NCBI GenBank assembly: GCA_934183255.1
Contig: CAKPSD010000001.1
Location: 321,351-385,350, forward strand
Origin: an uncultured Bacilli bacterium
GTDB taxonomy: Bacteria > Bacillota_I > Bacilli_A > RFN20 > DUOF01
Length of the DNA: 64,000 bases
Direction: 5' to 3'
Shown: in pieces, positions 24,747-26,431 of the stretch
Numbering within the stretch: position 1 is the stretch's first letter
Layout of the letters: each line of letters begins with the position of its first letter
Translations under genes and position numbers: made by a program
The notes under the pieces: generated by a model
What the model saw: the letters and a program-made list of their open reading frames with translations, nothing else
Databases searched by the model: none
What the model was told of the DNA's origin: nothing

Positions 24747-24941
24747 ATCTCCCCACCTCTTAAGATGATATTAACACACTTCATTAATTAAGGTATAAAG
24801 ATATTGCTAACAAAAATTAAATATTTTATGTCAATCTTTTTTATATGTTTTAGGAAATATTTTTTTGTCAATATAAATTTACTTGACTTTAAAAAATTAT
24901 TTATATAAGATTATTATTGTAAAAGAAAGGGAGAATGAATT

Positions 24942-24980
24942 ATGTATAATCCATCTTTATGGTTACATCATAATAGTTAA
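24942..24980 (+). CDS. leader peptide 1 (MYNPSLWLHHNS)
   Basis: AAGGGAGA SD 7 nt upstream. Followed by alternative hairpins and a terminator. Confidence 0.45.
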   Translation: MYNPSLWLHHNS

Positions 24981-25074
24981 TTGGTACTTGCAACTAATAT
25001 ATGTTTTGTAAGTACTTTTAGTGATGCAAAGCATATAAGTGGATTTATATATTTCTTTTATTATAAAAATTATA

Positions 25075-25117
25075 CCTGTCTATATGCTTTGTAAAATCAT
25101 AGACAGGTTTTTTATTT
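25075..25117 (+). terminator. attenuator terminator 1
   Basis: cctgtctat...atagacagg followed by ttttttattt. The upstream segment tgcaaagcatata is complementary to the 5' arm, making a possible antiterminator. Confidence 0.55.
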
Positions 25118-25136
25118 AGAAAAAGGAGGAAATAAT

Positions 25137-25181
25137 ATGTATATTTGTAAATCATGGCTACATCGTCATAGCTTGTTATAA
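25137..25181 (+). CDS. leader peptide 2 (MYICKSWLHRHSLL)
   Basis: AAAGGAGG SD 7 nt upstream. Homologous to leader peptide 1 (S.WLH..S core). Confidence 0.45.
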   Translation: MYICKSWLHRHSLL

Positions 25182-25267
25182 GTGCTTGCATTCTTATTAT
25201 GTTTTGTAGGCACTTTTGGTCATGTAAAACATATAAGATTAATTATACATATTATTATAATTTAATA

Positions 25268-25313
25268 CCCACCTATATGTTTTTGTATATGACTAATAGG
25301 TGGGTTTTATTTT
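25268..25313 (+). terminator. attenuator terminator 2
   Basis: cccacctat...ataggtggg followed by ttttatttt. The upstream segment catgtaaaacatata is partly complementary to the 5' arm. Confidence 0.55.
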
Positions 25314-25339
25314 ATAAGAAAGAAAGAGGAAAATTAAAA

Positions 25340-26431
25340 ATGAAAAATTTAGAAATATTAAAAGATTTAGTATCAATAAAAAGCTTTGATACTAATAGCA
25401 ATGAGGAAATAATTAATTATTTAATAAAAAAGTTTGAACCTTATGCAGAAGAAATTAAAATTATAAATAATTACAAATTAAACAAAAAGAAAAACTTATT
25501 AATTGGATTAAATACTAAAATAACTAATATTAATGATGCAATTGTTCTTTCTGGACACATTGATACTGTAGTTGCAGATGAATCTTTGTACAAAACAAAT
25601 CCATGCATTCCAACTTTAATTGATGATAAACTATATGGACTTGGAACTATTGATATGAAAAGTTATTTTGCTATTATATTAAATAACATTGAAGAGTTAA
25701 AAAAAATTAAAAAGCCAATAATTATAGCTATTACTAGTGATGAAGAAACTAATTTTGAGGGAATTGAAAATATATCTTCTTACTTAAAAGAAAAAAATGT
25801 AATTCCTTACTTTACAATAGTTGGTGAACCAACAAATATGAAAATATGTACATCTAGTAAAAGTTGCTATGAATATCAAATAGATATAACTGGGCTTGGA
25901 TGCCACAGCAGTAAACCTCAAAATGGGATAAATGCAAACTATATTGCTGCTAAATTTATTACTTTTATTGAAAAACTTAGCTTTAAATACCCAAATACTA
26001 CTCTTAATTGTGGAATTATGCAAGGTGGTGATAAAGTAAATATTGTATCTCCTAATAGTAAAATTGTATTTGATTTAAGAACTGATAATAAATCATTAAT
26101 AGACAAAGTATTAAAAGATATAAGAAACAAAATTGCTTATTTAAAGAAAAAATATAGTGGATGCTCAATTGAACTTTCTAATAATTTATCAATTTTACCA
26201 CTTGAAAGAAGAAATAGTTTAATTATTGAAAAGCTATTAAGAAAGTTTAATTTAGAAGAAAATGAATTTACTGGTGGATGTGAAGCCGGATACTTTCAAG
26301 CATTAGGAGGCGATTCAATATTATTTGGAGTTGGAGACCTTGCTTTAGCGCACAAACCAAATGAATTTGTAAATATTAATGAGTTTGAAAAATATAATGA
26401 TATGTTTATTAGTTTTATAAAAAGTTTATAA
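25340..26431 (+). CDS. M20 family metallopeptidase (ArgE/DapE-like deacylase or peptidase)
   Basis: True start MKNLEILKDLVSIKSF at 25340 after an AGAGGA SD. The ORF-track 47-aa 5' extension runs through the terminators. M20 motifs GHIDTV, GTIDMK. Confidence 0.75.
   Translation: MKNLEILKDLVSIKSFDTNSNEEIINYLIKKFEPYAEEIKIINNYKLNKKKNLLIGLNTKITNINDAIVLSGHIDTVVADESLYKTNPCIPTLIDDKLYGLGTIDMKSYFAIILNNIEELKKIKKPIIIAITSDEETNFEGIENISSYLKEKNVIPYFTIVGEPTNMKICTSSKSCYEYQIDITGLGCHSSKPQNGINANYIAAKFITFIEKLSFKYPNTTLNCGIMQGGDKVNIVSPNSKIVFDLRTDNKSLIDKVLKDIRNKIAYLKKKYSGCSIELSNNLSILPLERRNSLIIEKLLRKFNLEENEFTGGCEAGYFQALGGDSILFGVGDLALAHKPNEFVNINEFEKYNDMFISFIKSL

Follow-up and report, generated by a model that had tools for sequence, protein, structure and literature searches.

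Tandem leader-peptide attenuator modules 5' of an M20 deacylase gene in an uncultured Bacilli bacterium, probably reading His codons on a scaffold shared with tryptophan genes

What is read by a pair of short open reading frames (ORFs) when each is followed by a terminator and both stand in series 5' of a gene for an M20-family deacylase? The question is raised by a 64,000-nucleotide stretch of contig CAKPSD010000001.1 (assembly GCA_934183255.1) from an uncultured Bacilli bacterium, referred to here as the window, in which two such leader-terminator modules together span positions 24924-25316, 5' of the M20 gene. A preliminary description of this region had preferred a TnaC-like nascent-peptide sensor to a classical amino-acid attenuator. 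In the reading that we hold, with good though not full confidence, to be the best one, the modules would act by classical ribosome-mediated attenuation that responds to His, and probably also to Trp, twice in series. Leader-peptide attenuation is a known principle and the family is a new one, of which the modularity across its members is the more novel aspect.

Both modules lie on the plus strand and share one plan. Module 1 begins with the Shine-Dalgarno (SD) sequence GGGAG at 24929-24933 and a leader ORF of 12 codons at 24942-24980, encoding MYNPSLWLHHNS, with a Trp codon at 24960-24962 and two His codons, CAT CAT, at 24966-24971. Hairpin 1:2 (GGTACTTGCAA / TTGTAAGTACT, 24983-25016) begins 3 nt past the stop codon, and an intrinsic terminator follows, with its stem at 25074-25083/25099-25108 and a T-run to 25114. 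In module 2 the SD is AGGAGG (25124-25129) and the leader ORF, MYICKSWLHRHSLL, has 14 codons (25137-25181), with Trp at 25155-25157, His at 25161-25163 and 25167-25169, and an Arg codon, CGT, between the two His codons. Its hairpin 1:2 (GTGCTTGCA / TGTAGGCAC, 25182-25213) begins directly at the end of the stop codon, and the terminator has its stem at 25267-25276/25296-25305 and a T-run, TTTTATTTT, to 25313. The SD is placed 7-8 nt 5' of the ATG in both modules. The two are duplicates at the nucleotide level, as had been described, with 78% column identity, and a 40-nt degenerate motif made of the hairpin and the switch segment occurs twice in the window and never in 100 shuffles. The two Rho-independent terminators, whose stems are GC-rich, are also as previously reported, with their coordinates slightly corrected to 25074-25114 and 25267-25313; a simple terminator scan missed both because their loops of more than 8 nt exceed its limit. 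The peptide core common to the two leaders is W-L-H-x-x-S. The longer core S-x-W-L-H-x-x-S proposed earlier holds for this part, whereas S-x-W is offset by one residue between the peptides.

In order to find out how widely this arrangement is conserved, M20 homologues were aligned and a single genome of each species was scanned with the alignment. The scan returned 21 M20 loci from metagenome-assembled genomes of gut Bacillota, with 41-59% protein identity, the remaining loci being distant proteobacterial ArgE genes. An attenuator of the same architecture was found in 20 of the 21, in 19 cases directly 5' of the M20 gene and in one (L011) 5' of a trpS gene heading a trpS-M20 operon; the sole locus with no attenuator was L008. 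The scaffold is also present 5' of M20 orthologues (41-94% identity) in about 25 other gut Bacillota contigs. Each conserved leader has a strong SD, an ATG, an ORF of 10-16 codons and a hairpin right past the stop codon, followed by a CAAAACATAT-type segment and a terminator whose 5' side carries (G)TATGTTTTG. An SD-like site is present in all 34 curated leaders. The leaders linked to M20 genes are MFNSFVLWHH-like, with stretches such as LWHHS, MWHWHK, FWHHE, TLHHHS or YRHHHLL. The leader ORFs are thus conserved in orthologous regions, and translation of the leader is likely to be the input, as the preliminary description had assumed.

Closer relatives bear on the age of the duplication. The two whose M20 proteins are 94% and 81% identical retain the pair of modules together with the gene neighborhood. 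Leader 1 is identical in L120 and differs in L122 only by a synonymous CAT to CAC change. Leader 2 reads WLHHHSLL in L120 and WQHRHNLF in L122, with R to H and L to Q replacements and synonymous changes among CAT/CAC, AGC/AGT and TTG/TTA, and in terminator 1 of L122 a compensatory T-A to C-G change keeps the stem. Relatives at 73% and 70% M20 identity have a single module with the leader MNNSFMWLHHHI, so the duplication in the window is recent. Loci L005 and L007 carry tandem modules of their own (L005:3566-3987, L007:3064-3448), independent of those in the window and with an extra terminator-like hairpin between the modules. In L007 the final hairpin of the second module, which adjoins the M20 SD and has no T-run, may control translation instead of transcription.

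The most telling evidence comes from the same scaffold in front of other genes. The metagenomes were scanned with a pattern of the scaffold only (hairpin 3' arm and switch segment), from which the ORF was left out. Of the 39 loci that matched, some 20 are true members and about half are unrelated (coding regions or other palindromes). Six members (L091, L092, L103, L110, L113, L117) stand before trpS (TIGR00233, 338 bits; cut-off 177) with leaders such as MFSSFIWWRK, MFNSFTWWRE and MFYSFNWWRL. Three more precede trpB (TIGR00263, 536 bits; cut-off 392), with MFNSFNWWRS, MFNSFIWWRG and MYNSFNAWRQII in L089, L100 and L102, and one, with the leader MFNSFTCWRRRR, precedes an M20 gene (L086). A hidden Markov model of the scaffold added one member, L011, where MFNSFVWWHHK is placed before the trpS-M20 operon (2780-5089). 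Two further loci tie the M20 gene to the same amino acids. In L018 (3770-6428) a leader ending in TLHHHS is followed by M20 and, 20 nt on, by hisS (TIGR00442, 406 bits), and in L010 (3791-6173) a leader ending in LWHS is followed by M20 and then trpS.

The regulatory codons therefore match the downstream gene at the level of the family: WW with trpS or trpB, HH or H-x-H with M20, HHH with M20-hisS, and WWHH with trpS-M20. W-W occurs in 8 of 9 leaders of trp genes and in 0 of 23 M20 leaders (Fisher p = 9e-7, relatedness ignored), and His occurs in 0 of 9 and 21 of 23, respectively (Fisher p = 2e-6, relatedness again ignored). Regulatory codons that change with the controlled gene are, as read from these sequences, the signature of classical amino-acid attenuation. 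For the M20 gene of the window itself, the link to His and Trp is suggested by orthology and operon context only.

The scaffold also precedes genes of other kinds. A leader with Cys codons in a C-x-C-x-C arrangement, MFNLCICLCIK, precedes a gene for a GNAT acetyltransferase (L114:1025-1210, minus strand) and hints at a Cys-linked function of that enzyme. In L097 the Ile/Val/Arg-rich leader MSRLVIIRVISF precedes a gene for a 171-aa protein with no family match, and the order along L097:823-2298 (minus strand) is SAM riboswitch, metK, scaffold-type attenuator and the gene for the 171-aa protein. In L089, L100 and L102, trpB is the first gene 3' of the WW leaders; if it stands alone, it would suggest indole salvage. 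The L089 contig additionally carries three c-di-GMP-I riboswitch aptamers in series at a spacing of about 680 nt (L089:2716-4163, minus strand).

How could one scaffold serve these different codons? Each module would consist of five segments: segment 0, the body of the leader ORF; segments 1 and 2, which form hairpin 1:2 at 0-3 nt past the stop codon; segment 3, (G)CAAA(A/G)CAUAUA; segment 4, UAUAUG(C/U)UUU(G), which forms the upper 5' arm and loop of the terminator; and segment 5, the terminator 3' arm. In module 1 the 3' half and loop of the hairpin make up the decoy segment 2 (TATGTTTTGTA, 25000-25010), which is able to pair with the switch segment 3 (GCAAAGCATATA, 25026-25037). Segment 3 has the ORF, segment 2 and segment 4 (25081-25092, the antiterminator target) as alternative partners, and together with segment 3b (AAGTGGATTTATATA) it occupies 25026-25051. 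The ORF body is the partner of segment 3/3b. In module 2 the decoy segment 2 is again TATGTTTTGTA (25198-25208), the switch segment 3 is AAAACATATA (25226-25235), and segment 4 lies at 25274-25283; segments 3 and 3b (TATACATATTATT) span 25225-25258, and 3b pairs with the ribosome-binding site (RBS)/start region of ORF 2. The complementarity between upstream segments and the terminator 5' arms, already pointed out in the preliminary description, amounts to a 3:4 helix of 12 bp in module 1 (25026-25037 with 25081-25092), predicted with a stalled ribosome, and of 10 bp in module 2 (25226-25235 with 25274-25283).

Support for these helices was sought in a 26-sequence alignment, termed A3. All five alternative helices (ORF with segment 3, 1:2, 2:3, 3:4 and the terminator) can be paired across the alignment, and four of them show compensatory changes. 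In the nested set that joins the helix of ORF codons 2-5 and 3b to hairpin 1:2 and the terminator, pairing amounts to 88.6%, with changes on both sides at 22 of 31 pairs; none of 500 shuffles equals it, and slid controls reach 35-46%. Taken individually, hairpin 1:2 is 95.8% paired with double changes at 5 pairs, and the terminator helix is 94.7% paired with 7 of its 8 pairs covarying across the family, the pairs of the module 2 terminator being under-counted because the alignment is out of register there. Helices 2:3 (97.9% pairable) and 3:4 (98.5% pairable) each have compensatory cells and vary little, as is expected of a segment 3 that must pair with three partners. Among the compensatory changes are an A to G in segment 3 of module 1 matched by a T to C in segment 4, and a C-G to T-A exchange in L005b and L019, while RNAalifold lengthens 2:3 by covarying pairs. 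In L014, L018 and L021 the five-segment topology and all five complementarities are kept with unrelated sequences.

Pairing of ORF codons 6-8 with the 5' flank of segment 3 is unscorable on the MAFFT alignment, in which leader lengths differ, and duplex energies of single sequences were compared with shuffles instead. The duplex of the ORF body with segment 3/3b was better than in dinucleotide shuffles for 29 of 33 leaders (median z = -4.1). In module 1 it reaches -17.8 kcal/mol compared with -10.1 in shuffles (z = -3.2). This pairing explains most of the apparently conserved N-terminal residues as well as the recurrent TGG codon, and in L117 a synonymous TTT to TTC change is offset by an A to G change in 3b. 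As a whole, the modules fold better than shuffles (z = -4.5 for module 1 and -4.1 for module 2), and in both the minimum free energy structure includes the terminator.

The spacing of these elements is regular as well. From the stop codon to hairpin 1:2 the distance is -1 to 6 nt (median 2.5), independent of leader length, and in 23 of 26 leaders the last regulatory codon starts 10-15 nt 5' of hairpin 1:2, which is about the reach of the leading edge of a ribosome from its A site. We modeled the nascent RNA ending just after segment 4, with a ribosome represented by a 30-nt mask. If no ribosome is present, the ORF keeps segment 3 paired, with P(3:4) at about 0. An A site at any of codons 2 to n-2, among them the Trp and His codons, gives a P(3:4) of about 0.9-1 together with an intact hairpin 1:2. 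Once the ribosome has come to the stop codon, or to the one or two codons that precede it, 1:2 is melted, and P(2:3) is then about 1, with P(3:4) back at about 0. This three-state pattern holds for module 1, where P(3:4) drops from 0.96 at each of the two His codons to 0.00 at the stop codon, and for most family members.

On the basis of these results, each module would read the speed at which the Trp and His codons of its leader are translated. With no ribosome on the leader, the ORF (in module 2 the RBS/start region) would pair with segment 3/3b and the terminator would form with segment 4 free. When Trp-tRNA or His-tRNA is scarce, a ribosome would stall with a Trp or His codon in its A site, covering segment 0 and with its leading edge just short of hairpin 1:2, so that segment 2 would stay locked and segment 3 would pair with the emerging segment 4. 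Terminator nucleation would then be blocked and transcription would read through. A ribosome that gets as far as the stop codon, or the one or two codons preceding it, would melt the 5' arm of hairpin 1:2, and the decoy segment 2 would capture segment 3, leading to termination. As both modules are in series on one transcript, full M20 mRNA would require read-through of both terminators, and the deacylase would be produced under limitation of His and probably also of Trp. A C/U-rich run of the CUUUU type follows hairpin 1:2 in nearly all members (25013-25019 and 25211-25217 in the window; A3 columns 98-105), and the hairpin with this U-run could be a pause site for RNA polymerase that synchronizes transcription with leader translation, as in the trp and his leaders.

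Several observations weigh against this reading. Of the terminator stem, the 3:4 helix takes in just the top 3-5 nt, its remainder pairing with the loop, and in the commonest family members it misses the basal terminator stem entirely; an antiterminator effect of 3:4 would thus depend on topological and kinetic exclusion. Folding of the full leader at equilibrium gives the terminator at every ribosome position, so the switch must be kinetic. The alternative structures suggested in the preliminary description are seen as a change from 3:4 to 2:3 in the modeled nascent RNA, and the full leader at equilibrium shows no switch. A generic score for a sequestered terminator 5' arm was noisy because automatic terminator boundaries are imprecise. 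In module 2 the complementarity of the ORF with segment 3 is weak (z = -0.95), and 3:4 forms at the His codons only when the RBS/start region is occupied, which otherwise pairs with 3b. Some M20 orthologues, a minority, have Arg-rich or mixed His/Arg leaders (RRRR, WRRH, RRHH, LRR), and the amino acid tied to the M20 enzyme is therefore not uniform across orthologues. We considered whether the M20 genes with Arg leaders represent a separate enzyme clade and rejected this, as they form none. Finally, leader translation, stalling, kinetic competition, the role of the enzyme and the response to His or Trp are what we infer from the sequence features, their conservation, covariation and spacing, and the correlation between codons and genes.

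A further difficulty opens the way to the alternative that survives best. A modeled stall at any codon from 2 to n-2 yields 3:4, and each leader of the window has two His codons and one Trp codon, so that specificity would depend on the choice of codons only. The modules might then report on translation in general, responding to any slowing or absence of ribosomes, as under any starvation or stringent conditions, and not to His or Trp in particular. Termination in the absence of a ribosome agrees with this, as do the scaffold-imposed codons (F, N, S) common to leaders of all types. Such a general sensor leaves unexplained why W-W, H-H, R-R-R-R or C-x-C-x-C stand at the same place, the end of the stretch of codons at which a stall permits 3:4, and vary with the downstream gene, and why the distance from codon to hairpin is kept at 10-15 nt in 23 of 26 leaders, and we regard it as improbable.

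The TnaC-like sensor originally preferred would have W-L-H-x-H in the exit tunnel arrest the ribosome on a small molecule or metal, with the arrested ribosome setting the fold. Trp and His do recur near the C terminus of M20-linked leaders, each leader has few regulatory codons, and a His-rich sensor is conceivable for M20 enzymes, which are metal-dependent. The association between codons and genes is the main argument against it: on a homologous scaffold the supposed sensor residues are swapped along with the gene, from WW at trpS and trpB to HH at M20 and WWHH at trpS-M20, the residues after the Trp and His positions vary freely, and there is no invariant arrest motif independent of the downstream gene. 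In addition, close relatives show the R to H and L to Q replacements, most of the conserved N-terminal codons and the TGG lie in helices with compensatory changes, and the leaders are merely 10-16 codons long. Few regulatory codons are normal in this family, the Trp-type members having only two Trp codons. Both terminators are intrinsic, with a hairpin and a T-run, and a Rho-dependent region was neither seen nor searched for. We therefore consider a nascent-peptide sensor very unlikely.

Equally unlikely is a trans-acting factor (an RNA-binding protein, a tRNA or a small molecule) that recognizes the invariant UAUGUUUUG / CAAAACAUA with the ORF being secondary. In favor of such a factor are the unusually invariant primary sequence over 26 members (TGTTTTG in segment 2, CATA in segment 3, ATGTTTT in segment 4) and the little covariation within 2:3 and 3:4. 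Against it, a segment with three pairing partners is expected to be frozen, L014, L018 and L021 keep the topology despite quite different sequences, the ORF, SD and stop-to-hairpin spacing are universally kept, and there is no match to a T-box or riboswitch family.

With classical attenuation as the preferred reading, we asked whether the modules belong to a described system. Searches of the window and 10 related loci against Rfam at gathering thresholds gave no match for the modules, including to His_leader (RF00514), Trp_leader (RF00513) and T-box (RF00230), and elsewhere in these sequences gave only tRNA and unrelated riboswitches. At E<=10, the region 24750-25400 gave only chance matches of miRNA and sRNA families to the terminator hairpins. 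No description of this attenuator family was found in the literature searched.

Among known systems, Escherichia coli trpL (RF00513), in which absent translation and full translation both terminate, resembles the modules in that a leader of about 14 codons has two regulatory codons side by side close to its end. As an anti-antiterminator, the segment embedded in the ORF corresponds to region 1, which in trpL pairs with region 2, and the Trp-type relatives (MFNSFIWWRK) are direct analogues. The two are not homologous, as there is no Rfam match, and they differ in geometry. A ribosome at the trpL stop codon covers region 2, whereas here the switch segment lies about 45 nt past the stop codon and its capture would, according to the folding, be indirect, through a decoy strand freed when the ribosome melts hairpin 1:2. 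The modules would thus follow the principle of the trp and his attenuators with one twist, in that the ribosome at the stop codon would free a decoy strand rather than cover the antiterminator strand. T-boxes bind uncharged tRNA directly, need no translation and sometimes occur in tandem. They offer a functional analogy, being likewise a single Bacillota leader scaffold in which a codon change re-targets the amino acid and which controls genes for aminoacyl-tRNA synthetases and amino-acid supply, but there is no T-box match and the "specifier" would here be read by a translating ribosome. TnaC and other arrest peptides share a short upstream ORF whose occupancy by ribosomes controls downstream transcription; what defines them, namely a conserved arrest sequence, the sensing of a ligand in the tunnel and dependence on Rho, is missing or contradicted here.

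In enterobacterial hisL, a stall on the His codons leads to read-through and a ribosome at the stop codon to termination (PMC9413887). The likeness to hisL (RF00514) lies in the His codons of the leader ORF and in alternative hairpins that form a relay ending in an intrinsic terminator. The modules have no sequence or structure match to RF00514, they contain 2-3 His codons where hisL has seven in a row, the long-range pairing of their ORF with switch segment 3 has a separate decoy hairpin inside it, and their target is a deacylase gene rather than his biosynthesis, with two copies in series. Attenuators with His leaders have also been predicted by comparative genomics for his operons of Firmicutes, namely the Bacillus cereus group, Peptostreptococcaceae and Erysipelotrichales (PMC9413887). 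These are leader-peptide attenuators with His codons from the same phylum; compared by description only, they differ in controlling operons for his biosynthesis and in having 3-5 His in a row. The Salmonella mgtCBR leader (PMC3641672) similarly has two short ORFs in series, with alternative stem-loops coupled to each of them. The mgt ORFs bear no relation to one another and respond to different signals, whereas those described here are duplicates with the same codon content.

The surroundings of the modules can be outlined briefly. A thymidine kinase gene (24159-24746, minus strand) diverges from the M20 gene, with a gap of 593 nt between the two genes. A candidate promoter, TTGACT and TAAGAT separated by a 17-nt spacer, lies at 24883-24911 (plus strand) and places the predicted transcript start about 10 nt 5' of the first SD. 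It came from a consensus scan in which the number of sites was no higher than in shuffles, and which is weak when taken alone. In L120 and L122 the -35 hexamer is kept, as is most of the -10 region, and other family members have TTGAC-type and TATAAT-like promoters at an equal distance.

The M20 gene itself (25340-26431, plus strand; SD GAGG at 25326-25329) is monocistronic and encodes a deacylase of the ArgE/DapE family with 363 aa. Its homologues have 361-367 aa, and their alignments to the protein starting at 25340 begin at residue 1 and cover residues 1-363, so the longer gene model from 25199, which the preliminary description had already called into question in favor of 25340, is wrong; the gene calls of close relatives are likewise 363 aa. 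The best NCBIfam matches of the protein are models of acetylornithine deacetylase, each of them under its cut-off, and the nearest solved structure is E. coli ArgE (7rsf, E = 2.6e-26). Its leader codons and operon partners, hisS and trpS, suggest a role in the supply of His and Trp, and of Arg in some lineages, in which the deacylase would free His, and probably also Trp, from acylated or peptide-bound forms.

Between the M20 stop codon and the convergent ORF at 26464-27048, a 16-bp hairpin with T-runs on both sides (26429-26466) probably serves as a terminator in both directions. No other terminators in 5' untranslated regions turned up when the window was scanned; one site considered, 30142-30179 (minus strand), was rejected as an ordinary gene-end terminator. 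Rfam revealed no T-box or riboswitch anywhere in the 64-kb window, and the sole match of Rfam and ARAGORN was a tRNA-Gln(CTG) at 27519-27594 (minus strand).

On balance, we lean toward the view that the two modules are members of a widespread and undescribed modular attenuator family in uncultured gut Bacillota, in which the exchange of 2-4 codons would re-target one scaffold to Trp, His, Arg or Cys, as a ribosome-read counterpart of the T-box specifier. The family would control trpS, trpB, hisS-linked genes and an M20 deacylase acting as a salvage enzyme for His/Trp (or basic/aromatic) residues. If this is true, a large family would join the short list of leader-peptide attenuators outside Proteobacteria and Actinobacteria, in gut lineages that are known only from metagenomes. 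It would mean that a copy of an attenuator scaffold can be turned to another amino acid through the exchange of a few codons, a natural and easily engineered design, and the independent tandem duplications in the clade of the window and in L005/L007 would allow a test of how serial attenuators sharpen the response. The leader codons would also provide a free functional annotation, linking this ArgE/DapE-like M20 family, beside trpS and hisS, to the supply of His and Trp and, in some lineages, of Arg.

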